A stretch of DNA of 64,000 nucleotides from Candidatus Poriferihabitaceae bacterium (GCA_965203365.1 OZ241878.1:40541-104540), one strand, 5' to 3'. Shown: positions 28,906-60,299, counted from the stretch's first letter. Notes: a model not told the origin generated them from the sequence alone. Numbers and translations: made by a program.

Positions 28906-30268
28906 CCCCCGTGCCACTCTGAAGTGCAACACTTGGCCCGTCGCCTGATCGCTTGAGTCAGGCGGATTGCAGTGGGCCAGGTGATGGCAGACAATCTCAG
29001 TTTGCTAATGACTGGAGAACTGTCATGCCGAATGGCTACCACCACCTGACCCACCCGGAAAGATCGCCCATTTCCGCGCTCAAGTCCACTGGTCGATCCC
29101 AGCGGCAGATGGCTGATCAGCTCGGGCGGGACGTCAGCACGATTTCCCGAGAGCTGTCCCGCCACCGCGGGCAGCGGGGGGATCGTCACCAGCAAGCCCA
29201 GGGCAAGGCGACATCCCGACGCCGGGAAGCCTCGGCTGTGCCTTGGAAGATGACCCCGGAGCGCTGGGCGGTGGTCGAGGACCAGCTGCAGGCCGGATGG
29301 AGCCCGGAACCCATCTCGGGCCGGTTTCAGCAACCAGGGGAGGTGATGGCCGGCCGGGAATGGATCGATCAGCACATCCGGGCAGACCGACAGGCGGGGG
29401 GAGACCTTGACCGGTGCCTGCGGCGCCGCGGGAAGAAGCCCAACTGGCGCGGTGGTCGACATGCGGGACGCGGTCATCTTCCCGGTCGGGTAGACATCGC
29501 CGAGCGCCCGTTGATCGTGGAGGCCAAGGGCCGGATCGGGGACTGGGAGCTTGACCTGATCATGGGGGTGAAGCACCGGGGAGCCTTGATTTCCTTGGTA
29601 GATCGGGCCTCGAAGTATCTGGTGCTGGTCTGGGTGGAAGGGAAGACCGCGGCGGCCGTGACCGAGGCCATGGTCCGGCGGATGGGGCCGATTCGGGATC
29701 GAGTGCACACTGGCACGGCGGACAACGGCAAGGAGTTCGCGGGGCACCGGGAGATTGCGGCAGCCCTCGGAGCCGACTTGGATTTTGCCACTCCTGACCA
29801 CTCCTGGGAGCGGGGCCTGAACGAGCACACCCACGGCCGGGTACGCCAGTCCTTTCCGAAGGGAACGGACTTTCGTCAGGTGACGGCATCTCAGGTCCAG
29901 GCGGTGGAAGAGCGAATCAACCGCCGGCCCCGGAAGGTGCTGGGGGTTCGAACCCCTCAAGAGGTCTTCACCGCCGTCGCCCCGCCCTGAAGGCGGTCAT
30001 TCCTCTCCCCTCCCCTGCCTTTCCAGAAGCCCGTGTTCGACGGGCAGGGCCCCGCTCGGCCAAAACCCGTCTGACACGGCCCGAGCGGGCCCTGGTGTCG
30101 TGAAATCGCCGCGGTCAGACTTCCCTGGCGGCGAGAGGGATGCCATCAATGACCGACATCAGCCCCTGGGAGGGTTGAATGGTCCGGTCGCCGCCCCGCT
30201 CCCTTCATTCGGGCTACGCCCTCATGAAGGGAGCGGGGCGAGTGTTGCACTTCAGACTGGAAGTGGGG
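28906..30268 (+). mobile_element. IS30-family insertion sequence, copy 1
   Basis: TIRs CCCCCGTGCCACTCTGAAGTGCAACACT / AGTGTTGCACTTCAGACTGGAAGTGGGG (24/28); 3-bp TSD AGA at 28903-28905 and 30269-30271, whose removal restores the desulfurase frame. Confidence 0.92.
29025..29990 (+). CDS. IS30-family transposase (open frame but many substitutions at conserved sites)
   Basis: YHHLT..ER, STISREL, GDWELDLI, TADNGKEFA, WERGLNE, INRRPRKVLG; several conserved Tyr changed to Asp/Ser/Val. Confidence 0.85.
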   Translation: MPNGYHHLTHPERSPISALKSTGRSQRQMADQLGRDVSTISRELSRHRGQRGDRHQQAQGKATSRRREASAVPWKMTPERWAVVEDQLQAGWSPEPISGRFQQPGEVMAGREWIDQHIRADRQAGGDLDRCLRRRGKKPNWRGGRHAGRGHLPGRVDIAERPLIVEAKGRIGDWELDLIMGVKHRGALISLVDRASKYLVLVWVEGKTAAAVTEAMVRRMGPIRDRVHTGTADNGKEFAGHREIAAALGADLDFATPDHSWERGLNEHTHGRVRQSFPKGTDFRQVTASQVQAVEERINRRPRKVLGVRTPQEVFTAVAPP

Positions 30269-30452
30269 AGATGATTTCGTCGCTATCCGCGCCAATCAAT
30301 TCGCCAATTGTCGCGGCCGCCGCTTCCACCGACTGCGATGATTTCCACCCAAGCACATGATCTGCAGAATGTGGGTTCCCGAACGTCTCCACGAAGAACG
30401 GCGACATTTTCGTAAATACGCGTGAATCGACTCGGAAAAGCCATTAAGCCAG

Positions 30453-30711
30453 CTCCGAAGGCAGAGGTCAGAGGTTCGAATCCTGTCGGATTCTCAAAAT
30501 ATCTCAATAAATACAATTATTTATCGATTTGACTTGTTTTTTTCGACTAGCCTTGCTGGTGTGCACGGAAGCAATACGGAAGCAGAATTTTTTCAAAGTG
30601 GTGCATTTCCGGCCAAGGCTTTAATGCTTGTTTGCAGCAGCGGTTGGTTTGAACATGCACCTCGCCGCACCTTGGAGTCGGCAAATCGAATGTCCGCTAC
30701 GCGCCTTTATG
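30453..30711 (+). repeat. Diverged ~260-bp direct repeat of 16942-17198 (tRNA 3' half plus island end with arm-type sites)
   Basis: Shared blocks CAATAAATACAA.TATTTAT, GGAAGCAATACGGAAGCAGA, AACATGCACCT, CCTTGGAGTCG in both copies. Confidence 0.88.
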
Positions 30712-31078
30712 TCAAACAGACAGCATGGCTCAGCACGGCCCCGGCACTTCTGTTCGCTCACTTTGCTCAAAGCCTGCATCCCGCGGGCAGCCGAAGGCAA
30801 AACAAGGGACCGGAGCATATGTGGAGGATCTCGGAGACGGAGAATTTTGAAGGGTGAAGCCCGTCCGCGAGGAGCAGCGAAGAGGCGGGGAAAATTCTTT
30901 GGACGAAGCGATTGCGGTCAGCCCGGCAAAGGTCTCGTCTCACCAAAGACAGGCAGGGAGAGAATGTGCCGCCTTCGAAGGGGCCGGGCTAGGCTGGCGG
31001 TTTTGTGTCCTCTGACTTAAGAGGCCGAAATCCATGCCAGCTTGAACGCGTTCAATGCAGGCGGTCTGTCAGCGCCGC

Positions 31079-31587
31079 TCATGCCATCCCGAACGAGGCC
31101 TTCAGGGCAACCAGACTCGTATAGAGCCGGAGAGGCTCGGCAGGACCGGGCGCAAAGCCATGATGCCGGTAGAAGGCGGTGGCTGTCTCTTCCATCGCTT
31201 CGACCATAAGAAAGGCCGCAGCGATCTCGGAGCGCATCGCCCGCATGGCTGCATCGGCGATCAGGGCCGACCCCAGCCTCCGCCTTTGGAACCGCCGGTC
31301 AATAGCCAGCTGTCCAAGCCGAATAGCCGGAACGACCGGATAGCGGGGCAGCTTCTTGCGGGCGGCTCGTCTAGGTCTGCAAGATGGATGTGACAGGCCG
31401 ACAGCGTGTAGAAACCGGCGACGATCCCGGTGCCCGTCTTGATTGCCAGGCAACACGTGGCGACATTGCGGTGCTGATCCTGTTCGGCTTGCTTTGCAAG
31501 ATAGGCGTCGAGTTCCACCGAGCCACTGTTAAAGCCGTCGCGATCCTGTGTGCCGAGCGGCTCAATCGTGAATGGCGGCGTTGGCAC
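31079..31587 (-). pseudogene. GNAT acetyltransferase toxin (AtaT/TacT-like), frameshifted
   Basis: DRDGFNSGSVELDAYL...VAGFYTLSA in one frame, KKLPRYPVVPAIRLGQLAIDRRFQ..LG..L...FYRHHGF in another; shift near 31365. Confidence 0.85.
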
Positions 31588-31593
31588 CGGAAG

Positions 31594-31875
31594 TCAGCTC
31601 TTTGCGATCAGAGCGTCATGGCGCTCCTTGGCCTTGTGCATGGCCGGGATCGGCTTGGCATCTGCCAGCAAATCGGCAACAAAGGCCGAACTCTCTGCGC
31701 TCAGCCGGATGGCTTCAGCCTGTTCAAGCGTCTGGTGCGCGGCGGCGCTCGCCGCCGCCACCATGAAATCGGTGATGCTGTGTCCCTCGATCTCGGCGGC
31801 ACGCTTCAGCACCGCACCCACCTCTGGTGCGATGCGTGCTTCCAGCCTTATCTTCTTTTTCATCGGGGTTGTCAT
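31594..31875 (-). CDS. DUF1778 RHH antitoxin (AtaR/TacA-like)
   Basis: RLEARI...LKRAAEIEGHSITDFMVAAA...IRLS; directly upstream of the GNAT gene. Confidence 0.88.
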   Translation of the reverse strand: MTTPMKKKIRLEARIAPEVGAVLKRAAEIEGHSITDFMVAAASAAAHQTLEQAEAIRLSAESSAFVADLLADAKPIPAMHKAKERHDALIAKS

Positions 31876-32228
31876 AGCAAGTCTCCTTAAGTGAGAACAT
31901 ACTACAGTCCAGCCTCTATCCCTACCTTCAACTTTGTTGCAATAGCGGTTTCGACCACTCTCGTGGTCTCTCGCGACTCGGACTTCTGGGTCTGCGTGCC
32001 GTCGGTCGGGGCCCTGTCGAGCTCGCCGGCGCCGTGCACGACCTTAACGAGCGGCCTGCATTGAGATCCCGTCTTTCATGACAAGCCCTGTAATAGGTTG
32101 CTTTTCAACTGGAGGTACATTTGACCCAACGGTCAGGTAGCAAGAGCGTACCTGGGATCACTCCTCCGACCCATGAAGCATGATTTGGGGCATGCTATGA
32201 TGGAAAGGATGTACTGCGAGGAAACATG

Positions 32229-32420
32229 ACCATGAACCGGCTGACACGAACGTTCGAGGCAGCCTCTTCCGGAATCTCCGAACTTCGGATGGGTACTATG
32301 TGGACAAGACTGCTTATAACCATAAAGTTGAGCCAGGAAGGACGATACTGGGCTTGTCCGGTCCGCGCTGTTTCGGCAAGTCTCTGCTGGTGGATACGCT
32401 GCAAGCACGGTTTAATGGCA
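32229..32420 (+). pseudogene. N-terminal remnant of an AAA-ATPase_like/PD-(D/E)XK family gene
   Basis: Frame reading GYYVDKTAY...LSGPRCFGKSLLVDTLQ resembles the YVDKT...LSRPRRFGKSL family motif. Confidence 0.6.
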
Positions 32421-32514
32421 GTCCCCTCTTTGACATCCGATGACTCCCTTAACTGCCACATCTTTGCCCCTTAGGGTGAGTCGTCACTCCAAACATCCCT
32501 TGAGGTGTCGAACG

Positions 32515-33558
32515 ATGGAAATGAACCAGCAAGCAAGACACGACCTTCGGTATCAGATGGGCATTCTGGATGGGGTTTCACGTTCTTTTGCCTTTACCAT
32601 CCCACAGTTGCCGGATTCTCTGGAGATTACGGTTGGGAATGCCTATCTTCTTTGCCGGATCGTCGACACGATCGAAGATGAGCCGACATTAACCGTACAG
32701 CAAAAGGATCATTTCAACCAACGCTTTGTCGAGGTCATTGGCGGGCGGGAAGACCCGGTGGTATTCGCCCATGATCTAAGAGCGCAGCTTTCGTATGAGA
32801 CAACCGGTCATGAACGTGACCTCATCGCAAATACTGTCCGCATCATCCGAATCACCAACAGACTTTCGAGTGAACAACGTCAATCAGTGCAACGTTGCAT
32901 CGGGATAATGACCCAGGGAATGGTGCAATTTCAGCGTAGGGCAAGTCTTGACGGGTTGCGTGATCTGGCACATCTGGACCGATATTGCTACGCTGTGGCT
33001 GGAGTCGTCGGCGAAATGTTGACAGAGTTTTTCTGTGACTATTCTGATGAAATCAATTCCGAACGTCACCAGTTGTATTCACTCGCGACATCATTCGGTC
33101 AGGGGTTGCAGATGACCAACATCCTGAAAGATATCTGGGAAGATCATAGTCGAGGAGTCTGCTGGTTGCCGAGGGATATCTTTGATGCAAAGGGGTTCCC
33201 CGTCGGGTCACTATCCACGGGAAAAACGGAACCAGAATTCGTCAGGGGGTTGAGTGAGTTGGTGGCGATATCAGTCCATCATCTGAAACGGGCGCTGTGG
33301 TATGTTCTTCTGATTCCGCCACACGAAACCGGGATTCGTCGTTTTTGCCTATGGTCGATGACCATGGCCATTCTGACATTACGTCGAATTTACCGGTATC
33401 CCGATTACAAGAGCGGTCAGGAGGTGAAAATTTCAAGAAATGCGGCCAAAACAGGCTTGTTCGTTACGAACGTCTTGTCGAAATCCAACCCCGGTTTGGA
33501 ATGGTTGTTTTCCAAGCTCACCATGGGGCTGCCCAGCCAAAGTGTTCAGACTCACTAA
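32515..33558 (+). CDS. Squalene/phytoene synthase family protein (squalene synthase-like)
   Basis: [49 protein letters not shown]. Confidence 0.9.
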
Positions 33559-33817
33559 GATTTTTGCCACCATCTATTTGAAACGGTCTCCATTTCCCAA
33601 GTCCATATTCTCGACTTCCACGGTATGACAGTGATGGCCACCGCAAGGTTGCTGTATGCCCTCTTTCTGGTCTGATTAACTTGTCGAGACCAATGGCTGC
33701 CCGGTTCAGTGAAGTACGATAAATGGAGTGCGATGCAGTGACAAAAAGCCTCGATTTCAGTGAGTGAAAGAGTGTTGGATGAGCGAAACCCACCTTGGAA
33801 ACACTTTGTGGAACGAG

Positions 33818-35206
33818 TCACCTATCCGAGATTCCAATGACCTTTCCCGGGTTCAGGATGTTCTTGGGGTCCAGCAGGCTTTTGAATTGTTGCATCAACC
33901 GGTATCGGGTCGGTGAGGCCAGATCCCGCAGTGCCTGGCACTTGTCAATGCCGATACCGTGTTCGGCGGAAAACGATCCGCCCATTTCGGCAAGACCGCT
34001 GTAGACTGCTTTGTCCACCGACGCTTTCCGGGTGGGGGCCGGTTGGCCGGAAGTGATGGTCGCATGGATGTTTCCGTCGGCGAGATGGGCAATCAGAAAA
34101 ACCCTCAGATCCGGGGAGATGTCGTGGAGACGCCCCCGAAGCCCGTCGACATAATCCGCCAGATGGTCCAGCGGGACGGACACATCATACCAGAAACCAT
34201 GGGGCCAGACGGTGTCCACCACAAAGCTGTCTTCACGAATACGCCACATTTCGTTTCGTTGTCGCTCATTCGTGGCCACCACGATGTCCGACACCGTGCC
34301 GGACCCATACAGGGCGGACAAGGATTGTTCCACGGCATCGACCCGGGAAGGCGATTCCGATGCGAACTCGAACAACCCCAGCAACTGACCCGACCCCGGC
34401 TGGAGTGTCACCGGCAGGTTGATCGACAACCCGTCGGTGACGGTGATGACATAATCTGACCACATGGCTTCTGCCGACAACAACCGCACATCGGCGTCTT
34501 GGCGCAAGGCGGCATAACTGGCCACGGCACAGGACACATCCGGACAGACGGCCAGTGCCGTCATGCGGTTCGGGTCTTGGGGCAGAAGAGACAACGACAG
34601 GCGTGTGATCACGCCCAAGGTGCCTTCAGAGCCAATGAATAGTTGTCCGATGTCCAGACCTTCATTGGCCTTGGTGACGCGACGAAGATGGGTATAGACC
34701 GTGCCATCGGCGAGCACCGCCTCCAGACCGAGAATCCGGTGGCGCATCATTCCGTTTCGATGGGCCTCGATTCCGCCAGCATTGGTGGCCGCCATCCCGC
34801 CCAAAGTGGCGGAGTCCCGAGCGGCCAGGTCAATTCCAGTGGTCAGCCCGTGGGTTCTGGCGGCGGATTCCAGGGCGGCTAGTGTCACCCCACATTCCAC
34901 GATAGCCGTCCCGCTCAGCGGATGGATCGATTCGATGCGATTCATTTGGCCGGTATCCAGGATGAGCTGTCCTGCGGTCGAGACCGCCCCGCCGGAAAGA
35001 CCGGTCCTCCCCCCCTGAGTGACCACGGGGATGAGGCCTTGACTGCACAGGGCCAACAATTCGCTGACGTCTGCCACACTGTTGGGCAATGCCATCAGAT
35101 CGGCACCCAGGTTTTGCGGATGAAATCCCGGATGCCGATGGGTCATCTCATTCTGGGTGCGGAATGTGATCCGGGGCAGCCTGTCCGGTAATTGTTCCAG
35201 TGACAT
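33818..35206 (-). CDS. FAD-linked oxidase (D-2-hydroxyacid dehydrogenase/GlcD-like)
   Basis: QGGRTGLSGG, TLGGMAATNAGG, FIGSEGTLGVIT, HLADGNIH, SAEHGIG, LDPKNILNPGK; start at MSLEQL. Confidence 0.9.
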   Translation of the reverse strand: MSLEQLPDRLPRITFRTQNEMTHRHPGFHPQNLGADLMALPNSVADVSELLALCSQGLIPVVTQGGRTGLSGGAVSTAGQLILDTGQMNRIESIHPLSGTAIVECGVTLAALESAARTHGLTTGIDLAARDSATLGGMAATNAGGIEAHRNGMMRHRILGLEAVLADGTVYTHLRRVTKANEGLDIGQLFIGSEGTLGVITRLSLSLLPQDPNRMTALAVCPDVSCAVASYAALRQDADVRLLSAEAMWSDYVITVTDGLSINLPVTLQPGSGQLLGLFEFASESPSRVDAVEQSLSALYGSGTVSDIVVATNERQRNEMWRIREDSFVVDTVWPHGFWYDVSVPLDHLADYVDGLRGRLHDISPDLRVFLIAHLADGNIHATITSGQPAPTRKASVDKAVYSGLAEMGGSFSAEHGIGIDKCQALRDLASPTRYRLMQQFKSLLDPKNILNPGKVIGISDR

Positions 35207-35255
35207 TGTTCTATCGGATAAGCGCATTGTTCCCGTGTGGCAACATTTGATCATC

Positions 35256-36680
35256 CTACGGCGAGGATTTCCATTGCCGGGTCTTAGCGACGGCCTCGGT
35301 GAACTTCGCTGTCCAATCTTCATGAGATGTCGAGGGCGAATAGGTCTGGACGGGCGATGGACCTTCCGTGACCACCCCGAGTTCGGCGCCAGCCAACTGG
35401 GCCGTCCCGAGAGCCGTGATTTCCGAAAATGAATTGACCGTGACCCGTCGGCCAAGCGCATCCGACAGGAATTGACAAAAATAGGGATTGACGGAAAGCC
35501 CCCCATCAATGGAAATCTCGTCATCGACTCGGGTGAACCGTGACATGGCGCGGATGACCTCCGCAGTGCGCAAGGCAATCCCTTCGAGCACGGCCTGCAT
35601 CATGTCTTGGCGGTCGGTATCCAGGGAGAGTCCGATCCACATCCCGGCAGCATCCCGGTCCCAGTGCGGGCAGCCCAGTCCGGACAATGCTGGAACGAAA
35701 ACCAGATCGCGCATGATGGCGGCCGGCTTGACGAATGCGTTCAGTGAAGAGTAACCGTCAAACAGCTTCAGCCCCCGAGCCCATTCGATCGCCGACCCGG
35801 CACAATAGACCCCCCCATCCAGAGCATATACTGCCGCATGGTCGGCCTGTTGCCAGGCCACGGTCGGGAGCAGTCCTTGGTCAGGTGATCGAAGGACCTT
35901 GTCCCCGGTGACCATCAAGGCGAAGGCCCCGGTCCCGAAAGTGATCTTGACGTCACCGGATTGACGACATCCGTGGCCGTACAGCGAGGCCTGCTGGTCC
36001 ACCACGATGGCGGTGATCGGAATCCCGCGGCGGCTGGCCACGGTCCCCAGGACTCCGGTGGTGGGGACGATGTCCGGGAGTGCCTCCATGGGGACACCAA
36101 ACAGGTCACAGAGTGTCTGGTCCCATTGGCCGGTCTGAAGGTTCATCAGCGATGTGCGCGAGGCGGTGGTGATATCGGTCTTGAATTCACCCGTCAGTCG
36201 ATCCAGAAAAAACGCATCGGTGGTCCCGAGCTTCAGTTTTCCCTTTTTCCATAAGTCCGCCGCTTCGGGGATATGATGCAGGATCCAGGCCAGTTTGCTG
36301 GCGGAGAAATACGAATCAAGGGGCAATCCGGCCCGTTCCATGATGTCGTCTTCCACCCCGTCCTGTTTCATCTGCTCGACCCGGTCGCGAGTACGATGGT
36401 CCTGCCAGACAATGACTGGCGAGATCGGCTCGCGGGTATCCGCATGCCAGGCCAGACAGCTCTCGCCTTGATTGGCGATGCCTAGGGCCGTGACATCGGT
36501 CACCGAGTCGAGCGCCTTTTCCACATGGCACATCAGTTCCATCGGGTCGTGTTCCACCCACCCGGACCGAGGATAGTGTGGCTGGTGACGATGCACCGAC
36601 GTGATCGCCGCGTTGCCTTCAGGTCCAACTGCCAAGGCCCGCGTGCTGGTCGTCCCTTGGTCGATGGCAAGTATCGTCAT
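35256..36680 (-). CDS. FGGY-family carbohydrate kinase (glycerol kinase-like)
   Basis: LAIDQGTTSTR, IVWQD.RT, YFSASK, TDITTASRT, DQQASLYG, KITFGTGAF, DGGLS. Confidence 0.9.
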   Translation of the reverse strand: MTILAIDQGTTSTRALAVGPEGNAAITSVHRHQPHYPRSGWVEHDPMELMCHVEKALDSVTDVTALGIANQGESCLAWHADTREPISPVIVWQDHRTRDRVEQMKQDGVEDDIMERAGLPLDSYFSASKLAWILHHIPEAADLWKKGKLKLGTTDAFFLDRLTGEFKTDITTASRTSLMNLQTGQWDQTLCDLFGVPMEALPDIVPTTGVLGTVASRRGIPITAIVVDQQASLYGHGCRQSGDVKITFGTGAFALMVTGDKVLRSPDQGLLPTVAWQQADHAAVYALDGGVYCAGSAIEWARGLKLFDGYSSLNAFVKPAAIMRDLVFVPALSGLGCPHWDRDAAGMWIGLSLDTDRQDMMQAVLEGIALRTAEVIRAMSRFTRVDDEISIDGGLSVNPYFCQFLSDALGRRVTVNSFSEITALGTAQLAGAELGVVTEGPSPVQTYSPSTSHEDWTAKFTEAVAKTRQWKSSP

Positions 36681-36687
36681 GGTGTGG

Positions 36688-37929
36688 TCAGGCTGTTTCG
36701 AAAGACAGTCGGACGATGGCCGGCTGTGAGGCGAGCACATGATGTGGAACCGACAAGATCACCTGCTTTTCAGGCCGGGCTCGGATCGGTTTTGCCCAGA
36801 CCAGATCATCGTCCGCCCACAGGGACAGGGTGCCTTCCGCGTCATCGGAAAATCGCACCTTCACCGGGACATTCCTGGCCGATCGGTGATCGAGAATCAG
36901 CCTTTGGGGGGTGATGTAACGAATGACGGAGGCGGTTGACTGGATCATGGTGCCCCCATGCGAGGTGGGCAGGTCGTCCACCAGGGAACGGGCGATATGA
37001 TGCGCCGTTATCACACCTTCGCGCCAACAACGGCCGGAAGAATCCGCCGGATGCAGCATATTGCCGGCGGCAAAAAAATCGGAATCCGAGCACCGGCCAT
37101 ATTGATCGGTCACCGGGATGCCGAACCCCGGATGGATGTCAAGGTGTCCCATGCGGGCCAGAGCGGATTCGGAGACAAACTGTCCAGAGAACACGACACC
37201 GTCGCAGAGGATGGATTCCATCGGACCTTGCCCGCTTCGGACCATGACACTGCTGACTCGATCCTGACCCTGGATGCTAGCCAGTTCCGTATTCATCAGT
37301 ACACGGACACCCTGCAGTTGGGGCCACCAGGTGGCCGGTCGCCAGACGGTTGGTCGTCGACCAGCTTCTACCATGGCCACCGGACGAATCCCCGCCTGTC
37401 GACAAGTCAGCAAGGCCGAAAAAGAGACCAGCTTCGTGCCGACAATGATCGGACGGAAGAAGGGAATGCGGGATTTCAGGTACACCATCGACTGCAATGC
37501 GCCGGTATTCAGCACCCCCATTGGTCGAGTACCGGACACCATGCGGGCCGATCGGGGGGTCTCGCGCGTGCCCGTCGCCAACAGTACCCGCTTGGCCTCA
37601 ATATGCAGTAATCCTTGGGGAGTCGACACCCTCAGGGCAGGGCCGCGCTCAATGCCAATGGCGGTGGCTCGGGTACGAATATCCACCCCCACGGCTTCGG
37701 CCGCTTGCTGAAGCCGCGTGGCGTATTGCGGACCTTTGAGAACCCGATGAAATTCCTGCCATCCGAAGGGGGGGTGTCCACAATGGCGAGGAATGCCGCC
37801 GACCATGGCTTCCCGCTCAATCACCACAATGTGTCCGACGCCCACCTGTCGCAGCCGGGTCGCGGCCCCGAGACTGGCGGGTCCACCCCCCACAATGGCC
37901 ACATCACATCGTAACCTCGGCGTATTCAT
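36688..37929 (-). CDS. NAD(P)/FAD-dependent oxidoreductase (partner of GlpA-like dehydrogenase)
   Basis: IVGGGPA, GGIPRHCGH, LLATGTRE, FAAGN; ATGA overlap with upstream gene. Confidence 0.85.
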   Translation of the reverse strand: MNTPRLRCDVAIVGGGPASLGAATRLRQVGVGHIVVIEREAMVGGIPRHCGHPPFGWQEFHRVLKGPQYATRLQQAAEAVGVDIRTRATAIGIERGPALRVSTPQGLLHIEAKRVLLATGTRETPRSARMVSGTRPMGVLNTGALQSMVYLKSRIPFFRPIIVGTKLVSFSALLTCRQAGIRPVAMVEAGRRPTVWRPATWWPQLQGVRVLMNTELASIQGQDRVSSVMVRSGQGPMESILCDGVVFSGQFVSESALARMGHLDIHPGFGIPVTDQYGRCSDSDFFAAGNMLHPADSSGRCWREGVITAHHIARSLVDDLPTSHGGTMIQSTASVIRYITPQRLILDHRSARNVPVKVRFSDDAEGTLSLWADDDLVWAKPIRARPEKQVILSVPHHVLASQPAIVRLSFETA

Positions 37930-39341
37930 ATCATGGATGGTGGTTTCGTCATATCCATAGGGGCCGTGAAATGCCCGGCGGTAATGTCACTCAATTCCGC
38001 ACTACAGTAGAATCCTTGGCATCGCCCCATGGTGGCCCGGGTGCGCCGTTTCAGCCCCCCCAGCGATTTGGCTGACAGGGGCCCTTGAAGGGCCTTGTGG
38101 ATTTCCCGTCGGGTGACCAGTTCGCAATGACAGACAATGCCACCGTTGTCAGACCGCATCCAGTCCCGTTCTCCGACTTCACTGATCTGCGGCACCATAG
38201 GCCAGTGGACATTATCAGGTATGACGGCGACTGCCTGATCATTAATGATCGTTCGGGTGGCCAGCTGGGCAAGACCCAGTGCCGCACTCAGTCCCGTTGA
38301 GCGGATACCGCCGAGACACAGATATTTCCGTTTTCGATCCACCAGGAACTGGTAATCCCTCAAGCCGGTCGCGGGACGGATTCCGGCATAGACCGCTGTC
38401 ACGTCATGGGCTTTGAGGCTGGGCAGGATCCTTTCACCCGTCTGCCGCAATCGCTTCAGAGTGTTGGTGTCCACACTGGTGTCGTCACGGCTGTCCTGAT
38501 CTTCAGAACTGGGCCCAACGAGCAGGTTGCCGAAGACGGTGGGGCAGACCACGATGCCTTTGGTGGCCTCCGTGGGGACTGGTAGAAGGATCGTGTCAGT
38601 GAGCGTTCGGGCCGATTTGTCATAGACGACGAACTGACCCTTGCGGGGCCGGATCCGAAAGGGAGGTTGACCCATCAGTCGATTGTGCAGGGTGTCACCG
38701 TACAGTCCGGCACAATTGACCAGCCAGCGAGTGTGGAAGTTACCTTGGTTGGACGACAACTGCCAGAGTTCGCCATCAAAATGTCCTTGATGCATTTCGC
38801 AGTCCCGCCGGAATTTGGCGCCATGGGCCAAGGCCTGACGCAAGTAGGCCAGGGGTGTGGACCAAGGATCCACCAGGCATTCACCGGGGATGAGTACTGC
38901 GCCCAGCAGGCCCGGTCCGAGAGTGGGTACCCGAGTCCGGGCGGCGCCGGCATCAATGACGGCCACATCGGTCACCCCATTGGCATGGGCTTTGGACACG
39001 ATCTCATCGATTCTGGACGCCTGCTGATCATTCCAGACCAGGATCATCGCCCCGGTTTCCAGCAAGGGCAAGTTGAGACGACGATGGATTTCCCGAAACT
39101 CCTGATACCCCTCCGCCACGCAGGCCTGCTCGACCGAGCCGGTTGGCGCATCGAATCCGGTGTGCAGGATGGCGCTGTTGCCTTTGCTGGCGCCTTCCAG
39201 AATATCACTCGCCTTTTCCACCAGAGCCACCTTGGCCCCAGCCAGAGCCAGTCGACGTGTGACGGCACATCCTACGACCCCCGCGCCGACGACCAGCACG
39301 TCATGGATCGTTTGTCGGCGCACAGGGGGAGCAGGTGGCAT
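37926..39341 (-). CDS. FAD-dependent oxidoreductase with C-terminal BFD-like [2Fe-2S] domain (GlpA/LhgO-like)
   Basis: VVGAGVVG, GASKGNSAILH, PRKGQF, GIRSTGLS, VCHCELVT...MGRCQGFYC. Confidence 0.88.
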   Translation of the reverse strand: MPPAPPVRRQTIHDVLVVGAGVVGCAVTRRLALAGAKVALVEKASDILEGASKGNSAILHTGFDAPTGSVEQACVAEGYQEFREIHRRLNLPLLETGAMILVWNDQQASRIDEIVSKAHANGVTDVAVIDAGAARTRVPTLGPGLLGAVLIPGECLVDPWSTPLAYLRQALAHGAKFRRDCEMHQGHFDGELWQLSSNQGNFHTRWLVNCAGLYGDTLHNRLMGQPPFRIRPRKGQFVVYDKSARTLTDTILLPVPTEATKGIVVCPTVFGNLLVGPSSEDQDSRDDTSVDTNTLKRLRQTGERILPSLKAHDVTAVYAGIRPATGLRDYQFLVDRKRKYLCLGGIRSTGLSAALGLAQLATRTIINDQAVAVIPDNVHWPMVPQISEVGERDWMRSDNGGIVCHCELVTRREIHKALQGPLSAKSLGGLKRRTRATMGRCQGFYCSAELSDITAGHFTAPMDMTKPPSMI

Positions 39342-39513
39342 GAGAAGTTCTTCACGAAGTCGGTCCGATGCAACAGCTTCCAGTGTAGTGGATAAATGAC
39401 CAACCAGTCAATCCTGACCAAATATGATCGTCTGAAACACCAAAAAAATCGATTTTAATCGAGTATTTTCCGGAAATCATGACTGATCAGAAAAAATATG
39501 TTAGGGTTCGGTC

Positions 39514-40281
39514 ATGCAACCTAGTAAACCCAGTAAACGACAGGCAGCTATTTCGGATCTGGTGTGGCAGTGTCACCGGGTGTCCGTGGAGTCATTGGCC
39601 GCCCGATTCGCCACTTCCCCGGAAACGATCCGACGGGATCTGACGGTTCTGGCACGCAGCGGGCAGATTCGGAAAGTCCATGGCGGTGCGACGCTGCCGA
39701 GGATAGCGGAGGAAGGACCGTTTGCGGCGCGCTTGCGTTCCCAGGTGGCCGCCAAGAGGCTGATTGCCAAACGAGCGCTACCCTTGGTGTCGTCTGGAGA
39801 TACCTTGTTCCTCAATACCGGATCGACCACTTTGCTGTTTGCGGACCAACTGACGGGACTGGACAGTCTCACGGTCATCACCAATTCTGCGGAAATTGCT
39901 CGGGTACTGTCCGCTGGCAACGCATCCATGGAGGTTTTCCTTCTCGGGGGGGCGTATCAGAGTGATAATCGGGAGACTTATGGCCCCATCGCCATCGAGC
40001 AGTTGGGCCGGTTCCGGGCACACAGAGCCTTCCTGACAGTGGGCTCGGTCGAAGCCACCGCCGGCGTCATGGATTACAATTCGCAGGAAGCGGAGCTGTC
40101 CCGGGCCATGATCCGGCATGCTGGCACCGCCACTCTGCTGGTCGATTCGTCGAAATTCGGCCAACTGGCCCCGTTCACGGTGGCCGGATTCGATCGGATT
40201 GACAGCATGGTATGTGAACGGATGCCCCAGTCTCCCCTGGAACAGGCCTTGGCCAGACAGCAAGTCGAAATCGTCTGTTGA
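39514..40281 (+). CDS. DeoR/GlpR-family transcriptional regulator
   Basis: SPETIRRDL..L...KVHGGA, GSTT, VITNS, DSSKF; divergent from the kinase operon. Confidence 0.92.
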   Translation: MQPSKPSKRQAAISDLVWQCHRVSVESLAARFATSPETIRRDLTVLARSGQIRKVHGGATLPRIAEEGPFAARLRSQVAAKRLIAKRALPLVSSGDTLFLNTGSTTLLFADQLTGLDSLTVITNSAEIARVLSAGNASMEVFLLGGAYQSDNRETYGPIAIEQLGRFRAHRAFLTVGSVEATAGVMDYNSQEAELSRAMIRHAGTATLLVDSSKFGQLAPFTVAGFDRIDSMVCERMPQSPLEQALARQQVEIVC

Positions 40282-40369
40282 ACCACCGGGTTCATGCGAT
40301 ACCATTCACCCGTCTACATCTGATCGTCGATCTAGTCTACCGGCCACCATTTCTCGAGTCTCCCCTCCA

Positions 40370-49309: not shown

Positions 49310-49310
49310 T

Positions 49311-52130: not shown

Positions 52131-52264
52131 GACTATTTCCTCTCGTCGTTCTACATTTCTATTCTATCTTTGGGCGATACTACGGACAATTTTTTCTTAT
52201 CACGTTCCGATTCCAAGAATCTTCTTCATTGACTCTTATTGCTGTATTTTATCCAAGATATCTG

Positions 52265-54009: not shown

Positions 54010-54065
54010 GCTCCATACTGTTGTGCCATTGTGGCAATCCATTATAGACACGAGGCCGAAGGGAA

Positions 54066-55688
54066 TCAAGATTTCCGCACCGCCTCGGTGAGTTCATCGA
54101 TCTCACCCAGGATCTGCGTCTCGATCCCCCGCAGTTCCTTCAGGATGTCCAGCGGATCGCGGTGCTCGACCTTCGCCCGGCTCAGCGGCCGGTGCCGATT
54201 GGCGCTCAGGTTGAAGTCGGCAGCGCGGATTGCGTCCGTCTCGGCGAACCACCACTTTTCCGTCCAGTCGGCCGCCGAGTCTCTGTCCTGCCACTGCTCC
54301 CACCGGTTTTCACGATCATGGAATGCCTCGACCAGACCGGGCAAATCATCCTCGTCGATCGGCTGGTCGTGGTTGGCATCCAGCTTGAAACCATCGTTCT
54401 CGGCGTGCAGGAACATCACACGCCTTGTCGAACCGCCCTTGCGGAACTCCAGCACCGAGGTCTTGACCCCGGAATAGGGGTTGAACACCCCACCAGGGAG
54501 TGACAAGACGGCTTCGACCGTATTATTCTCGACCAGTTTCCGCCTCAGCTCCTTGTGCGCCCCGGTGGACCCGAACAATACCCCCTCCGGCACCACCACG
54601 CCGCAACGTCCGCCGGCCTTCAGGTGGTTGAGCATGTACTGCAGGAACAACAGTTCGGTCTGCGCCGTGCGCCCGATCTTCACATCCTCGACGATGCGGT
54701 CCTTGTCCAGGCGGCCGGAAAACGGTGGATTGGCCAGGACGACATCGAATCCGTCCGCTGGCAGGCTGAGTTCCGCCTTCGCTGTGCGGTCCAGGGAGCG
54801 GGTAAGTGCGTCGCGGCGCACGATACGGACCCTCTCCAGTCCGCGCAATGTCAGGTTCATGGTGGCCAGGCGCACCATCTGCGGGTCCACATCGGTGCCA
54901 TAGAAGGTCTCTTCCTGCAGCTGTCTCACGGCGTCGCGGCCCAGCATGTCGCCGAGGCCACGCCGCACGGTCTTGCCGTCGGTCTCGACCTCCTCAATCC
55001 CGGCGGGCGAGGAGTTGGCGAGCCGGATATGGTCCCAGGCCCCGACCAGGAACCCCGCCGTACCCGCCGCCGGATCGTAGACCGTCTCCCCGAGCCGGGG
55101 ATCGACCAGGTGGACCAAGGCGCGGATAACGTGACGCGGCGTGCGAAACTGCCCGAGTTCGCCCGCCTGGCGGATCTGACGCAGCACATGCTCGAACAGG
55201 TCGCCCTTGGTGTCGGCGTCCACCCGGTCGAGCTGCAGATCGTTCAGTTGACTGACCACTTGTGTCAGCACGGTCGGCTCGTCGATCACCAGCCGAGCGC
55301 CGTCCATGAAGTCCGTCACGCCGTTGGCGGCGATTTCGGCATGGAACGCAAAGACCTCTTCCCGGACCCAGTGCACCAGCCGCTCGCCGTTCAGGGCATG
55401 CGCCCAGGACGACCATCTCAACAGTTCCCGCGGCACGGCCCCGGCACCCGACTCCGGCGCATTGCGCGGATCGCGCAGTTCCCATTCCCCCTTGAAAACG
55501 CTGGTGTAGGGGGCCGCGCCCGGCCGCTGTGATGCCCGCCCCCGTGCCGCATCGGCCGCCTCGTACAGATAGAAGTAGATCAGAAAGCTGAGTTGTTCCG
55601 CATTCTGGGCCGGGTTCGGATACCCGCCGCCGAACAGGTAGTCACGGAGACGATCGATCCCGCGCCGCAGTTCCGGGGTCATGGGCAT
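54066..55688 (-). CDS. hsdM: Type I restriction-modification methyltransferase subunit
   Basis: GQFRTPRH, YDPAAGTAGFL, ANPPF, VVPEGVLF, SLPGGVF.PYSGVKT. Confidence 0.93.
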   Translation of the reverse strand: MPMTPELRRGIDRLRDYLFGGGYPNPAQNAEQLSFLIYFYLYEAADAARGRASQRPGAAPYTSVFKGEWELRDPRNAPESGAGAVPRELLRWSSWAHALNGERLVHWVREEVFAFHAEIAANGVTDFMDGARLVIDEPTVLTQVVSQLNDLQLDRVDADTKGDLFEHVLRQIRQAGELGQFRTPRHVIRALVHLVDPRLGETVYDPAAGTAGFLVGAWDHIRLANSSPAGIEEVETDGKTVRRGLGDMLGRDAVRQLQEETFYGTDVDPQMVRLATMNLTLRGLERVRIVRRDALTRSLDRTAKAELSLPADGFDVVLANPPFSGRLDKDRIVEDVKIGRTAQTELLFLQYMLNHLKAGGRCGVVVPEGVLFGSTGAHKELRRKLVENNTVEAVLSLPGGVFNPYSGVKTSVLEFRKGGSTRRVMFLHAENDGFKLDANHDQPIDEDDLPGLVEAFHDRENRWEQWQDRDSAADWTEKWWFAETDAIRAADFNLSANRHRPLSRAKVEHRDPLDILKELRGIETQILGEIDELTEAVRKS

Positions 55689-55692
55689 GGAC

Positions 55693-57837
55693 TCAACCCT
55701 CCCCGGTGCGTGGACCTACTGGCCCGCCGGTCGACTGCGTACGCCCGAACACCGCGGCGTTGATCCCGGCGATCATCCTGTCCAGGGACTGTTCCCCGCC
55801 GAACACGCGGCGGGCTTCGGCATAACCCCCCAATGCGGTGAAGGGATGTTCGTCGAAGCTCCAGGCGCCGAGGCCGTCCCTGTCCATCGCATCCGCCCGC
55901 ACCCGGCTGCCGATCAGGTTGGCCCAGCGCGTCTGTTCGGCATCGAAGTCTGCCTGCTCCCCCCGCCAAGCCTCGAACTTCAGGCCGAACTCGGCGGCGT
56001 GCGCCTCATGCTCTGGGGACTGCACGATGCGGCCGGTCCCGTCGAGAGTCAGCCACTCGCGGCTCGCCGGGTCGATCTGGTCGTCTACATCGAGCGTCAA
56101 CAACAGGCGCGGATCCTGCAGCCTCCTGTTGGCCCCCGGTGTCCCCATCACCCCGCCGTCGATGTCCACATCGTCGTCGCCGTGGAAGTCCGTCACGCCG
56201 ACGAAGTCGAAGATCGTGAAGCCCGCCTTGCCGATATGGTCCGCCTTGCGCGTGCCGCGCCCGCGCATCTGGCGGTAGAGGATGGCGCTCTTGGTGAACC
56301 GGGCCATGACGAGGTTGACCACCTCTGGACAGTCGAATCCGGTATCGAGCATGTTGACGCTGACCAGGATCTTCGGATACGCCTCCTCCTTGAATCGCTG
56401 GATGCGGGTACCGGCGTCGGGCGCAGGGCCGCCACCGACGTCGCTCACCACGAAATCGGCATAGCGCACGCTCGGGTGGGGTTTCAGATCCGCGAACTGC
56501 TCGTCGAACATCTGCGCCAGAGTCTCGGCATGGCGCTTCGTGACGGCGAACACAATCGTCTTGCCCCATTGGGGCACCCGCCGGAGGCCGTCCCGGCCCA
56601 TGAAGCCCTTCTCATGTGCGTCGCGGAACTCGCGCACCAGGGCGCGGTTGCGTTCGGGGATCGTGAACTTCCGCTCCAGTGCCTGCGGGTCCATCGTGAT
56701 CGTGTCCGAACCGGCGAACCACTCCTCGAACTCGGCGCGGGTCGCACGGTCCATGGCACGCCAGTCGAGTTCGTCCCGGTGGACCACGAAGCCGTCTTCG
56801 GCCGCGGTCTTCACCGTCATCGCCCGGTAGATGCGATACGGCACCAGATGGCCCGCCTGGATGGCTTGGCGCAGGCCGTAGCGGAAAGTGGGTTCGGCGA
56901 GTTCGAAGAACCGCAGCGTGTCGCGCACGAACCGCCCGTCCTCGGGATCGGGCAGGGTATCGGCATCCGCCGTGCAGGGCGTGGCCGTCAGGCCGAGCTG
57001 GAGGGAATCGAAGTATCGCAGCACGCCGCTGTATTCACCGTAGATCGAGCGGTGGCATTCGTCGGTGACGACGAGGTCGAAATAGCCCGGTGACAGCGTG
57101 CGGTACTCCACGATCATGGTCTGCAAGGTCGCGATCGTGATGCGCTTGGCGCGGTCGAACCGACGGCCGGGCCGCAGCACATGGCAGGGATAGTCGCGCA
57201 GATGATCGGCGAAGGCGTCCTCGGCCTGCCGGGCCAGGGCGATCCGGTCCACCAGGAACAGCACGCGGGTCACGAATCCCGCTGCAAACAGCCGCTTGAC
57301 GAAGGCGGCCGCCATGCGCGTCTTGCCGGTGCCGGTCGCCATCTCGACCAGCAGCTTGCGCCTTCCGCAGGCGACGTCGGCCGACAGCGCCTCGATGCAG
57401 GCGATCTGGTAGTCGCGGTCGACGATCTTCCGGTCGATGGCGACCGTCGACAGGTCGCGGCGCACCCGGCGGGCGGCGGTCCGCCGCTCCAGATCATCCT
57501 GGGCAGGGAACCCCGCAATGTGGCGGGCATGGGCATCCGTCTCCCGGTCCAGGAACCGGACTGCTTCACCATTCGACAGGAAGACGAACGGCACACCAAG
57601 CTGTTCGGCGTAGTGCCGTCCCTGATCCTGCGCCGTGATCGGATCAAGGCTCGCCCGCTTGGCCTCCAATACCGCCAGCGGCCGGCCCTGGCGGTCGCAC
57701 AGGACATAGTCGGCCTGCGTACCATCCGCCAGCACATGCTCGAACAGCACGCTTGATCCGTCGGTCAGATCCCAGCCCGCATCCGTCAGCAGGGCATCGA
57801 TCTTGACCCGCGCAAAGGCTTCCGTGGGGCCGGTCAT
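55693..57837 (-). CDS. hsdR: Type I restriction enzyme R subunit (compact, EcoEI/EcoAI-like)
   Basis: ADYVL...LEAK nuclease, RDYQ, MATGTGKT, DECHR, GLTATP, MLDTGFD, QMRGRGTR. Confidence 0.92.
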   Translation of the reverse strand: MTGPTEAFARVKIDALLTDAGWDLTDGSSVLFEHVLADGTQADYVLCDRQGRPLAVLEAKRASLDPITAQDQGRHYAEQLGVPFVFLSNGEAVRFLDRETDAHARHIAGFPAQDDLERRTAARRVRRDLSTVAIDRKIVDRDYQIACIEALSADVACGRRKLLVEMATGTGKTRMAAAFVKRLFAAGFVTRVLFLVDRIALARQAEDAFADHLRDYPCHVLRPGRRFDRAKRITIATLQTMIVEYRTLSPGYFDLVVTDECHRSIYGEYSGVLRYFDSLQLGLTATPCTADADTLPDPEDGRFVRDTLRFFELAEPTFRYGLRQAIQAGHLVPYRIYRAMTVKTAAEDGFVVHRDELDWRAMDRATRAEFEEWFAGSDTITMDPQALERKFTIPERNRALVREFRDAHEKGFMGRDGLRRVPQWGKTIVFAVTKRHAETLAQMFDEQFADLKPHPSVRYADFVVSDVGGGPAPDAGTRIQRFKEEAYPKILVSVNMLDTGFDCPEVVNLVMARFTKSAILYRQMRGRGTRKADHIGKAGFTIFDFVGVTDFHGDDDVDIDGGVMGTPGANRRLQDPRLLLTLDVDDQIDPASREWLTLDGTGRIVQSPEHEAHAAEFGLKFEAWRGEQADFDAEQTRWANLIGSRVRADAMDRDGLGAWSFDEHPFTALGGYAEARRVFGGEQSLDRMIAGINAAVFGRTQSTGGPVGPRTGEG

Positions 57838-58053
57838 TCCATCGTCCAAGATCCCCAAGTCCCGGTGTACCAGCCACCGGGGTTGTGGATCGTGATGCTG
57901 GTCATACTCATGCAACTGTCCATCTGAAGCAGAATTTACGTACAGGTTGAAGTCAAATCAAGATCATTGGCCGATTGCTGCTAAAGCATCAAAGGACTGC
58001 ACCGGATTTCACTAAGTCGTGCCTGCCAAGACAGCAAGGAGATAGAATTGATA

Positions 58054-58935
58054 CTATCCGACCAGCTTGTCTCGAAGCCATCTATAGGATTTGACTGCCG
58101 CCGCACCAGGAATATTCGCCAGCAATCCCACAATTAGACAGAGCAGTGCCGCAAACCATTGGATTGATATCGAATAAATGATTATCCACCAAACGCATAT
58201 CCCAATCACGATCCCGGTTAAGCTCGCTTCAAAAATCGGCACTCCCCAGAGATGCAAGATTGGCTGGTACGGTTCCTTATATTTCACCCTGACACCTGCT
58301 TTTTGGCATGAAATGTAAATTACTGGACTGACATCAGAAATGGCATTTGTCATGTACGAGAATCTGATTGCCTGTCCCCGTGCGATCACAGGCACCTCAT
58401 ACCAGCGCTGAGTAGACCATATCTCCCAGTTGGCAGCTTGAGCTTGGTGAAGTTGAGCAACAGTTAATGTATCCCCAGCGGCTTTCGCTCTTTCTGTCTC
58501 TACTAATGAATGCTGGAGTGTCTTCTTGATCTCCTCATATTCTCTAGTGTGCTTCAGGAATTCAACTGTGCCTTCAATATGTGTCCGTTCGGTCATCAGT
58601 TGTAGTTGCTCTGTCCCAGTATAGATCTTTATTTCCAAGTTTTCCACATCGCATATGCTGCGATTGATCAGCCAAATATCACTTATATATAGATTCTGCA
58701 TTCGATTACCGCCAACAGTTACCAAAACCTCTCCATGAATGTTATCATAGCCTGAAGTGCCAATCCGATTATGCGTTACATGATAAGTTAGTAAGGTTCG
58801 ACGATTTTGTATCCAAGTCAAAAGCAATGTCATTACAAAGGTTAAACCAGCGGTAATTACCAAATCCAGCATAGCAAATATCCTCAGCAGTACATATTTT
58901 TCGTAACCACTCGTCCCGTTGGATGCATTTTTCAA
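58054..58935 (-). CDS. Hypothetical membrane protein (N-terminal TM, soluble middle, two C-terminal TMs)
   Basis: 293-aa open frame, AT-richer than the core genes; hydrophobic ends; no family recognised; start may be 58872. Confidence 0.7.
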   Translation of the reverse strand: MKNASNGTSGYEKYVLLRIFAMLDLVITAGLTFVMTLLLTWIQNRRTLLTYHVTHNRIGTSGYDNIHGEVLVTVGGNRMQNLYISDIWLINRSICDVENLEIKIYTGTEQLQLMTERTHIEGTVEFLKHTREYEEIKKTLQHSLVETERAKAAGDTLTVAQLHQAQAANWEIWSTQRWYEVPVIARGQAIRFSYMTNAISDVSPVIYISCQKAGVRVKYKEPYQPILHLWGVPIFEASLTGIVIGICVWWIIIYSISIQWFAALLCLIVGLLANIPGAAAVKSYRWLRDKLVG

Positions 58936-58987
58936 GATGACTGGTTGACAGTTGACAGGATAGTGGATTTGTCCGTTTGATACGAGT

Positions 58988-60299
58988 CCCCCGTGCCACT
59001 CTGAAGTGCAACACTTAGCCCCGTCGCCTGATCACTTGATGTAGGGCGGATTGCAGCGGGCCAGATGATGGCAGACAATCTCAGTTTGCTAACAACTGGA
59101 GAACTGTCATGCCGAATGGCTACCACCACCTGACCCACCCGGAAAGATCGCCCATTTTTGCGCTCCAGTCCACTGGTCGATCCCAGCGGCCGATGGCTGA
59201 GCAGCTCGGGCGGGACGTCAGCCCGATTTCCTAGGAGCTGTCCCGCCACCGCGGGCAGCGGGGGGGCCGTCACCAGCCCGCCCAGGGCAAGGCGACATCC
59301 CGACGCCGGGCCGCCTCGGCCATGCCTTGGAAGATGACCACCGAGTGCTGGGCGATGGCGGAGGAGTGGTGGCGGGCAGGCGGGAGCCCGGAGCAGGTCT
59401 CGGGCCGGTTTCAGCAACCAGGGGAGGTGATGGCCGGGCGGGAATGGATTGATCAGTCCATCCGGGCGGACCGACCGGCGGGGGGAGACCTTTACCGGTG
59501 CCTGCGTCGTCGGGGGAAGCAGCCCAACGGGCGCGGCGGGCGACCTGCGGGATGCGGTCATCTTCCCGGTCGGGTGGACATCGCCGAACGCCCGGTGATC
59601 GGGGACGCCCCGGGGGGGCTGGATTTACTTGGTAGATCGGGGCTCGAAGTTCATGGGGCTGATCGGGGTAGAAGGGAAGACGGCGGCGACCGTGACTGAG
59701 GCCATTGTCCAGCGGATGGGGCCGATTCGGGATCGGGTGCAGATGGGCACGGCGGACCACGGCCAGGAGTTCGCGGGGCACCGAGAGATTGCGGCAGCCT
59801 TGGGGGCTGACTTCTATTTTGCCACCCCCTATCACTCCTGGGAACGGGGCCTGAACGAGCACACCAACGGCCTGGTACGCCAGGACTTTCCGAAGGGAAC
59901 GGACTTCCGTCAGGTGACGCCGGCCCAGGTTCGGGCGGTGGAAGAGCGGATCAACCGGCGGCCCCGGAAGGTCCTGGGGTATCGGACCCCGGAAGAGGTC
60001 TTCACCGCCGTCGCCCCGCCCTGAAGGCGGTCATTCCTCCCCCATCTTCCCCCTTCCGCCAGCCCGCATTCGACGGGCAGGGCCCCGCTCGGCCGAAACC
60101 GGCCCGAGTCGACCCTTGCGTCGTGAAATCGCCTCGGTCAGACTCCCTGGCGTCGAGATGGATGCCATCGGTGGCCGAAATCAGCCCCTTTCAGCCCCTG
60201 GGAGGGCTGAATTTTCCGGTCGCCGCCCCGCTCCCTTCCTTCGGGGGATGTCCTCATGCCGTGAGCGGGGCGAGTGTTGTACTTCAGACTGGAAGTGGG
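58988..60299 (+). mobile_element. IS30-family insertion sequence, copy 2 (transposase pseudogene 59109-60024)
   Basis: Same TIRs as copy 1; in-frame TAG near 59232 and a deletion/frameshift near 59610-59625; no matching TSD seen. Confidence 0.9.

Follow-up and report, generated by a model that had tools for sequence, protein, structure and literature searches.

A directional A:T>C:G excess in the insertion sequences of a Candidatus Poriferihabitaceae bacterium and its possible link to recombination among copies

The stretch of DNA analysed here (64,000 nucleotides of a Candidatus Poriferihabitaceae bacterium, GCA_965203365.1, OZ241878.1:40541-104540; hereinafter the window, with positions counted from its first letter) contains two copies of an insertion sequence (IS) of the IS30 family, copy 1 at 28906..30268 and copy 2 at 58986..60302, both on the plus strand and both located where a preliminary description of this DNA had placed them, and it is a directional excess of A:T>C:G changes in these elements and their relatives that concerns us. 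Copy 1 (1363 bp) is bounded by terminal inverted repeats of 35 nt at 28906..28940 and 30234..30268 that are 83% complementary, with a hairpin just inside the right repeat (30192-30240, 23 nt, 91% complementary), and its transposase frame (28953..29990, plus strand, 345 amino acids, aa) contains no stop codon. The product of this frame scores 250.2 bits with the 'IS30 family transposase' model NF033563 (cut-off 80) and 46.7 bits with the Pfam helix-turn-helix (HTH) domain HTH_38 (cut-off 27); its rve domain reaches 25.7 bits, under the cut-off of 32.6 that is exceeded in the least-changed IS30 copies of the genome (35.3 and 33.5 bits). By the transposase model, the HTH and DDE (rve) core and the inverted repeats, copy 1 is an IS30-family element, one with degraded motifs and an open frame, and the frame probably stayed open despite the damage to conserved codons because stop codons seldom result from A>C or T>G. 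The alignment with copy 2 places AGA at both flanks of copy 1 (a reading made at copy 1 only), which fits a 3-bp target duplication, and the resemblance of copy 1 to any other copy of the family is at most 90%. Two overlapping frames of 150 aa each on the minus strand (27942..28783) resemble parts of one gene split by copy 1, a further 51-aa piece of which is found at 30252-30407 on the same strand; judging from the translations rather than from a family search, we read the interrupted gene as cysteine-desulfurase-like. Copy 2 is a broken element, with inverted repeats of 30 nt (58986-59015 and 60273-60302, 80%), about 50 bp missing relative to copy 1 and a frame split into open reading frames (ORFs) of 41, 125 and 131 aa.

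The genome that contains the window (G000) is a single contig (C1) of 3.70 Mb with a GC content of 57%. Searched with copy 1 as the query, it yields 211 high-scoring segment pairs amounting to 91 kb; at least 31 IS30 copies are full-length and mutually 75-92% alike, the family including fragments masks 97,784 bp, and repeats of 200 bp or longer span 368 kb. When bases are simply compared with the majority base, the 31 copies contain 381 singletons, including 179 G:C>A:T and 42 A:T>C:G, spread evenly over the codon positions (86, 81 and 75), and at 266 sites a minor base is present in at least 6 of the 31 copies, with A/C or G/T pairs at 98 of these sites, transitions at 113, C/G at 47 and A/T at 8. 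The direction of change was obtained with natural IS30 elements from three lineages of congeners (G009, G006 and G003) as outgroups, which have GC fractions of 0.65-0.68, are 72-75% identical to copy 1 and each contain an intact frame of 335-344 aa. Under the strict rule all three outgroups had to agree, polarity was taken from counts of column patterns together with the outgroup bases, and an allele is referred to as shared when present in at least 6 of the 31 copies. Two of the IS30 copies in the congener G006 (L009 and L016) are identical and have open 344-aa frames, and a third place shows the same match score; it looks as though the G006 element is currently active, unlike the decayed population of G000.

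Among the 175 shared derived alleles, A:T>C:G is the most numerous class, with 64 cases as compared to 8 for G:C>T:A (the others being AT>GC 16, AT>TA 5, GC>AT 49 and GC>CG 33), whereas the 228 polarised singletons are dominated by GC>AT (109, next to GC>TA 37, AT>CG 25, AT>GC 21, AT>TA 21 and GC>CG 15); for AT>CG, 64/175 versus 25/228 corresponds to an odds ratio of 4.7 (p=1e-9; all p-values for IS30 are overstated because the copies are related mosaics). Shared AT>CG changes are found at 22% of the conserved A/T sites and GC>TA changes at 1.3% of the G/C sites. The frequency spectrum of AT>CG is U-shaped, with the derived base in a single copy at 25 sites, in 2-5 copies at 12, in 6-15 at 26 and in 16 or more at 38. 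The 64 shared changes occupy codon positions 1, 2 and 3 in 20, 25 and 5 cases, respectively, with 14 in non-coding parts of the element; shared GC>AT and GC>CG changes are mainly located at codon position 3. The changes strongly depend on the base 5' of the affected A, with 16 sites hit and 4 not hit in TA, 37 and 56 in CA, 13 and 89 in GA, and 4 and 42 in AA, that is, 53 hit and 60 not hit among YA sites versus 17 and 131 among RA sites (Y, pyrimidine; R, purine; odds ratio 6.8, p=2e-10). A pyrimidine precedes 56 of 73 shared A>C alleles and 16 of 29 singletons, as compared to a fraction of 0.31 at unchanged A sites, and the shared alleles at YA sites comprise 56 A>C and 10 A>G changes. A 3' G is disfavoured around the changed A. 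The hits are symmetrical with respect to the strand, involving 33 A and 37 T of the plus strand of the element, which led us to reject a diversity-generating retroelement as their source. The T>G hot spots that follow runs of G, as described in one report (bioRxiv 10.1101/2022.10.28.514265), were considered as well; a 3' C next to A is not enriched here (26 hit, 57 not). The directional A:T>C:G excess in these insertion sequences is thus real, and it persists when the copies are collected across the genome and formally counted, which bears out the preliminary description as far as the existence and the direction of the excess are concerned.

That description had further taken the RQY codon to be hit independently in the two copies and had read the changes as a hypermutation signature; neither independent hits nor hypermutation as the dominant decay of each copy in place is supported. 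Ten of the 13 sites that it cited (29409, 29796, 29832, 29839, 29850, 29851, 29107, 29139, 29445 and 29730) indeed have A/T in all the outgroups and C/G in the cited copy, and 29724 has the support of two outgroups out of three; no support as an A:T>C:G change exists for 29082 (the outgroups have C, C and T) and 29795 represents a change of another kind. However, each derived allele at the cited sites recurs in the family, the number of carriers ranging from 3 to 24 out of 31, and this includes the RQY codon that was taken to be hit separately in the two copies, where the allele at 29851 is present in 22 copies and that at 29850 in three. In neither of the two copies is AT>CG the majority class: the 136 derived changes in copy 1 consist of AT>GC 11, AT>CG 35, AT>TA 6, GC>AT 40, GC>TA 10 and GC>CG 34, and the 145 in copy 2 of AT>GC 15, AT>CG 34, AT>TA 7, GC>AT 47, GC>TA 10 and GC>CG 32. 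Per available site, it is the top class, affecting about 12% of 289 A/T sites versus 6.5% of 618 G/C sites for GC>AT. None of the 35 A>C changes in copy 1 and two of the 34 in copy 2 are private, the remainder being common to other copies. Private changes number 0-38 per copy, mostly fewer than 10 (copy 1 has one), and are dominated by GC>AT, with 132 GC>AT and 28 AT>CG summed over 30 copies, which speaks against A:T>C:G hypermutation as the prevailing mode of decay in place.

The signature recurs in an unrelated family of insertion sequences in the same genome. The IS1634 family (287.8 bits, cut-off 100) is represented by six copies that are 98-99% alike and have frames of 593-606 aa; among the 69 variable sites, 46 are of the A/C or G/T type, and 36 of these 46 have a 5' pyrimidine. 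With two G009 elements (62-67% identical) as outgroups, 31 sites can be polarised by both and 49 by at least one; AT>CG makes up 25 and 30 of these, respectively, and G:C>T:A 2 and 4. The 5' neighbour is a pyrimidine at 26 of the 30 AT>CG sites, with 26 YA sites hit and 295 unchanged next to 4 RA sites hit and 454 unchanged, and 25 of the 26 coding A>C changes are nonsynonymous. The derived base is found in one copy at 6 sites, in three copies at 6, in four at 8 and in five at 10, and the groups of copies defined by the individual derived alleles intersect but are not nested, so that either exchange between copies or repeated hits are needed. A degenerate family of 1.85 kb with a weak ISNCY match displays a partial A>C signal. 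Outside this genome, in the IS30 copies of the congener G003, 35 of the 84 polarised sites are AT>CG, and 29 of these 35 are preceded by a pyrimidine.

So is the excess a property of the insertion sequences or of the genome at large? The congeners are 68-80% identical in housekeeping DNA and neutral sites are near saturation, hence the comparison is confined to conserved columns and third codon positions. A four-species alignment of single-copy genes, comprising 13,424 columns, contains 1076 changes specific to G000 (AT>GC 131, AT>CG 78, AT>TA 39, GC>AT 471, GC>TA 143 and GC>CG 214), and AT>CG changes in these genes show no enrichment of a 5' pyrimidine either in G000 (36/78) or in G003 (36/74). 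There are 77 third positions in the YA context where the three other species agree on A/T, and in G000 seven of them have changed by A>C and 19 by A>G; the ratio of 7:19 versus 56:10 at the YA sites of IS30 (odds ratio 15, p=2e-7) indicates that the spectrum of the insertion sequences is not that of the whole genome. Non-IS duplicates and families of functional paralogues are dominated by transitions and lack the YA bias; the paralogue families are a weak control because they are under selection. Of these, F1 (e.g. C1:1517926-1519191) comprises 19 paralogues of about 1.25 kb that are about 71-75% alike, 18 of them with intact frames of 411-428 aa, and no ORF of its representative, the longest frame included, has a Pfam match; F3 matches AAA-ATPase_like and PDDEXK_9, F5 has eight copies, and none of F1, F3 and F5 shows the YA signal, whereas F2, F4, F6 and F7 have too few full copies to serve as controls. 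Two other repeat families of this genome are a CCDC90-like coiled-coil protein (C1:2554403-2555203, 80 matching stretches) and a DruA-like piece (C1:2575138-2576169, 13 matching stretches). Among the repair genes, mutY (354.1 bits, cut-off 286.5; an open frame of 402 aa) and mutS are intact. For mutT, the loss of which had been named as a possible cause, the best match is an intact frame of 163 aa that scores 90 bits with TIGR00586, under the cut-off of 97.9, which is itself exceeded in only 3 of 14 control genomes. The conclusion that the signature is tied to insertion sequences and weak in single-copy genes is therefore supported, within the limits of a comparison that sets IS30 and IS1634 against functional paralogues and genes. 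Accordingly, the part of the preliminary description that linked the changes to insertion sequences stands, and the part that saw in them a dedicated machine analogous to the repeat-induced point mutation (RIP) of fungi is not shown by these data.

The IS30 copies are mosaics generated by gene conversion. Copies that are 89% alike overall share identical runs of up to 808 bp, as compared to a maximum of 79 bp when the columns were shuffled (five times), the differences between the sister copies c2029397 and c2049835 are confined to two patches with all types of change, and linkage between sites decays with distance. At distances of up to 10 bp, r2 is 0.27 between two A/C-type sites, 0.35 for mixed pairs and 0.47 between two sites of other types; the weaker linkage of the A/C-type sites fits a site-autonomous step, either short-patch or at hot spots. 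The A>C load varies among the copies from 0.13 to 0.72 and is lowest in c3003157 and c3238720, the sole identical pair, which have a frame of 334-337 aa with rve above the cut-off and which must have moved recently because they do not differ internally and have different flanks. Matches to rve at E<=1e-5 are found at only seven places in the genome, which are the least-changed copies. Each member of the identical pair (C1:3003157-3004527 and 3238720-3240084) is located some 0.2-0.9 kb from an IS1634 copy (3000828-3002920 and 3240923-3243014, respectively), and a preferred target next to that element may be involved.

With regard to the surroundings of the elements in the window, an 88-nt direct repeat (16942-17029 and 30453-30540, 83%) encloses about 13.5 kb and, by eye rather than by a tRNA scan, resembles the 3' end of a tRNA gene; the stretch looks like an integrated island that carries copy 1 together with the gene it interrupts. 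The part of the window from 20001 to 28905 has a single short match to the DNA of the three congeners, and for this reason the interrupted gene cannot be polarised or used as a pseudogene control. A further small repeat is probably located at 25544-25790, where the public runs contain an additional variant that differs at 10-23 positions and, with a depth 2-10 times that of the flanks, is the more abundant one. A GC-rich segment of 3.76 kb (54075-57837) is duplicated at C1:1720212-1723974 with 94.7% identity, the differences between the two comprising 127 transitions versus 37 changes of the A/C type.

What kind of process could produce a transversion that accumulates in mobile elements and is weak elsewhere? 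We tentatively favour, with a probability of roughly 0.45, a process coupled to recombination among the repeats that acts on A·G or A·8-oxoG mispairs, the reason for this preference being that the excess is seen in sequences that exchange tracts and is weak in single-copy genes. We infer the link to recombination and to particular enzymes from what is directly observed, namely the excess with its polarity and context, the mosaic structure, the recurrence in another IS family and in the IS30 copies of a congener, and the weakness in genes. An A to C transversion requires an A·G-type mispair. Under this scenario, the members of an old IS30 population would continually overwrite stretches of one another by gene conversion, and ordinary decay, dominated by G:C>A:T, would proceed underneath a directional A:T>C:G change at 5'-YA-3' that is strand-symmetric, mainly affects the first two codon positions and destroys transposase function without closing the frames. 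Two routes can be envisaged. In the first, short-patch correction of heteroduplex by a MutY-type enzyme would remove the adenine from A·G or A·8-oxoG, resulting in a conversion bias towards C:G for the A:T>C:G transversion only; in the second, dGTP, possibly oxidised, would be misinserted opposite A during repair synthesis. By either route, the new C:G alleles would then spread between copies by conversion.

Several of the properties that biased conversion would entail are indeed found, including the exchange of tracts between copies, the high frequency of the favoured alleles and the presence of mutY. According to published reports, MutT keeps 8-oxo-dGTP from pairing with A and MutY excises A from G:A mispairs (PMC12606429), and mutT hot spots in the lacI gene of Escherichia coli are TAA and CAA sites (bioRxiv 10.1101/2022.10.21.513255), a context that resembles the one described here. 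Biased conversion and oxidised-guanine mutagenesis are both known phenomena, and it is the confinement to repeats that is the new element. Full-text searches, in a collection that leaves out most subscription journals, returned no account of bacterial insertion sequences with an A:T>C:G signature of their own or with a MutY-linked conversion bias.

There are, however, several observations that do not sit easily with a recombination-coupled origin. The long identical tracts between copies (at least 110 bp) are unbiased, with 50 derived A>C alleles observed and 50.0 expected, so they are not enriched for the supposedly favoured allele. Copies with more private changes have only a slightly higher A>C load (Spearman 0.21-0.28, p 0.14-0.26). 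Divergence from the outgroups amounts to 25-28%, and under the strict rule conserved sites alone are retained; in the congener G009, AT>CG makes up only 8 of the 63 polarised sites of the IS30 copies; and in the comparison with genes third codon positions stand in for neutral single-copy DNA without being strictly neutral. The ratio of AT>CG to AT>GC among singletons is 25:21 in IS30 and 6:1 in IS1634, versus 7:19 at third positions of genes, and a pure conversion bias is insufficient because it cannot create alleles and the supply of A>C changes already looks raised in the insertion sequences. Finally, the contexts described in Pseudomonas aeruginosa differ from YA: those reported for Pol IV and oxidised dGTP are 5' G and/or 3' C, and GAA+TTC (PMC12318082), and natural mutT mutators are described as lacking a specific context (PMC10625568).

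We rate three other possible explanations below a recombination-coupled origin, namely mutator episodes, a stay of the elements in mutator hosts, and a system similar to RIP. Mutator episodes of the mutT/8-oxo-dGTP type, repeated or past, could have affected the entire genome, with the changes surviving only in dispensable DNA: in a GC-rich genome, A and T occupy codon positions 1 and 2, and A:T>C:G changes would be purged from genes. A:T>C:G is the mutT class, the lacI hot spots have a similar context, and the nearly complete set of nonsynonymous changes among the coding A>C in IS1634 (25/26) is of the kind that selection would remove from genes; furthermore, the 7/77 A>C changes at YA third positions are not below the rate in IS1634 (26 hit versus 295 invariant YA sites), and the best mutT match falls short of its cut-off. 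Yet A>G outnumbers A>C at those same third positions of genes by 19:7, versus 10:56 at the YA sites of IS30, AT>CG makes up 78 of 1076 changes in genes and is not enriched for a 5' pyrimidine in either G000 or G003, the mutT-like frame, mutY and mutS are intact, and G:C>A:T prevails among the private changes of dead copies. Taken together, these facts make mutator episodes an unlikely explanation.

We likewise give low credence to an origin of the A>C changes outside the chromosome, in insertion sequences circulating via strains or co-resident bacteria some of which are mutators, or through error-prone copying in the course of transposition. The derived alleles mostly map to the shared, internal part of the family history, as is also apparent in the frequency classes of IS1634, the IS30 copies of G003 share the signature, and the relatives are labelled as metagenome assemblies, so exchange among neighbours appears plausible. 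However, the IS30 copies that moved most recently carry the lowest load (0.13), and load tends upward, if not significantly, with private changes. The transposition mechanisms of IS30 and IS1634 are generally regarded as different, yet both families show the signature, and the non-nested sets of derived alleles need exchange within the genome in any case.

In its broadest form, the idea of targeting is that the genus possesses a process that singles out insertion sequences or repeats and, irrespective of the strand, changes A:T at YpA to C:G. Such a process would be the bacterial equivalent of RIP, in which missense changes would silence the transposases, the frames would stay open and the GC content of mobile DNA would rise; this appears improbable to us. 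Still less do we expect a dedicated host process, similar to RIP in concept, by which DNA would be recognised as repeated or mobile and its A:T pairs mutated to C:G. The confinement of the signature to insertion sequences of at least two unrelated families (IS30 and IS1634), in part also in the family with the weak ISNCY match, the disabled transposases, with rve retained only at the seven places of the least-changed copies, and the absence of the signature from functional paralogue families are all compatible with such a process, of which the literature searches returned no report. Against it, no candidate enzyme turned up, a RID-type enzyme not having been searched for, the private changes that arose in place are largely GC>AT, the alleles are common to the copies and shuffled among them rather than independently acquired, and the functional paralogues, being under selection, are a weak control. 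To our knowledge, no chemistry is known that base-edits A into C, deaminases giving transitions. A by-product of recombination fits the data at least as well as a dedicated RIP-like machine. An artefact, that is, a wrong repeat consensus in a mixed-sample assembly, is very improbable: although the relatives are labelled metagenome-assembled, contigs from public runs break at the element ends and the interior of copy 1 has no independent confirmation, the copies differ by 8-25% nearly without indels and the six IS1634 frames are open, the flanks and both junctions of copy 1 (22000-28933 and 30241-41999) are matched with 0 differences in three public runs from two studies, alternative alleles occur in the short contigs of these runs as well (e.g. 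at 29107, 29228 and 29832), the separately assembled G003 carries the signature, and systematic errors would make the copies alike rather than different.

How does the pattern relate to known systems? In fungi, RIP produces C:G>T:A transitions at CpA through a cytosine-methyltransferase-like enzyme during the sexual cycle. As in RIP, the changes amass in repeated mobile DNA, disable the elements, depend on a strong dinucleotide context and spare single-copy genes; unlike in RIP, the change is an A:T>C:G transversion at YpA, the organism is a bacterium and the alleles are shared among the copies by conversion, and G000 shows neither independent mutation of each copy in place nor C:G>T:A at CpA. 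GC-biased gene conversion has reportedly been proposed for bacteria by Lassalle et al. in 2015 (cited in PMC10625568) and has in common with the present case the dependence on recombination, the skew of derived alleles to high frequency and the rise in GC. Here, however, a single transversion class is driven (64 shared AT>CG versus 16 AT>GC), the setting is that of dispersed repeats within one genome, there is the YA context, and recent long tracts are unbiased. The base change is identical to that in the mutT/8-oxo-dGTP signature and in the MutY correction of A·G to C·G within the 8-oxoguanine (GO) system; in the literature quoted above, the lacI hot spots and the action of MutY on G:A agree with this, and the Pseudomonas contexts do not. 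Unlike the signature of a mutT mutator, the present one is not genome-wide, as indicated by the genes, and the mutT-like frame and mutY are intact; A:T>C:G, nearly exclusive in such mutators, makes up 25/31 of the polarised sites in IS1634 and is the top class per site among the shared alleles of IS30, and it makes up 35/136 of the derived changes in copy 1 and 34/145 in copy 2. Ordinary IS decay in symbionts likewise leaves numerous degraded copies and fragments, with private changes biased in the usual way towards G:C>A:T; the present case differs in that very little of the variation is unshared or non-mosaic, and in that a directional A>C excess is seen among the shared alleles.

If the pattern holds, this would be a mutational or conversion signature restricted to the mobile elements of one bacterial genome. 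Insertion sequences could then be inactivated directionally, beyond random decay and deletion, dispersed repeats of a bacterium could act as a recombining population, and one transversion class could shape the composition of mobile DNA. The case also warns that dead enzymes can hide behind open transposase frames. The YA>YC excess in IS families relative to genes provides a simple index that can be computed across genomes in order to seek the responsible gene.

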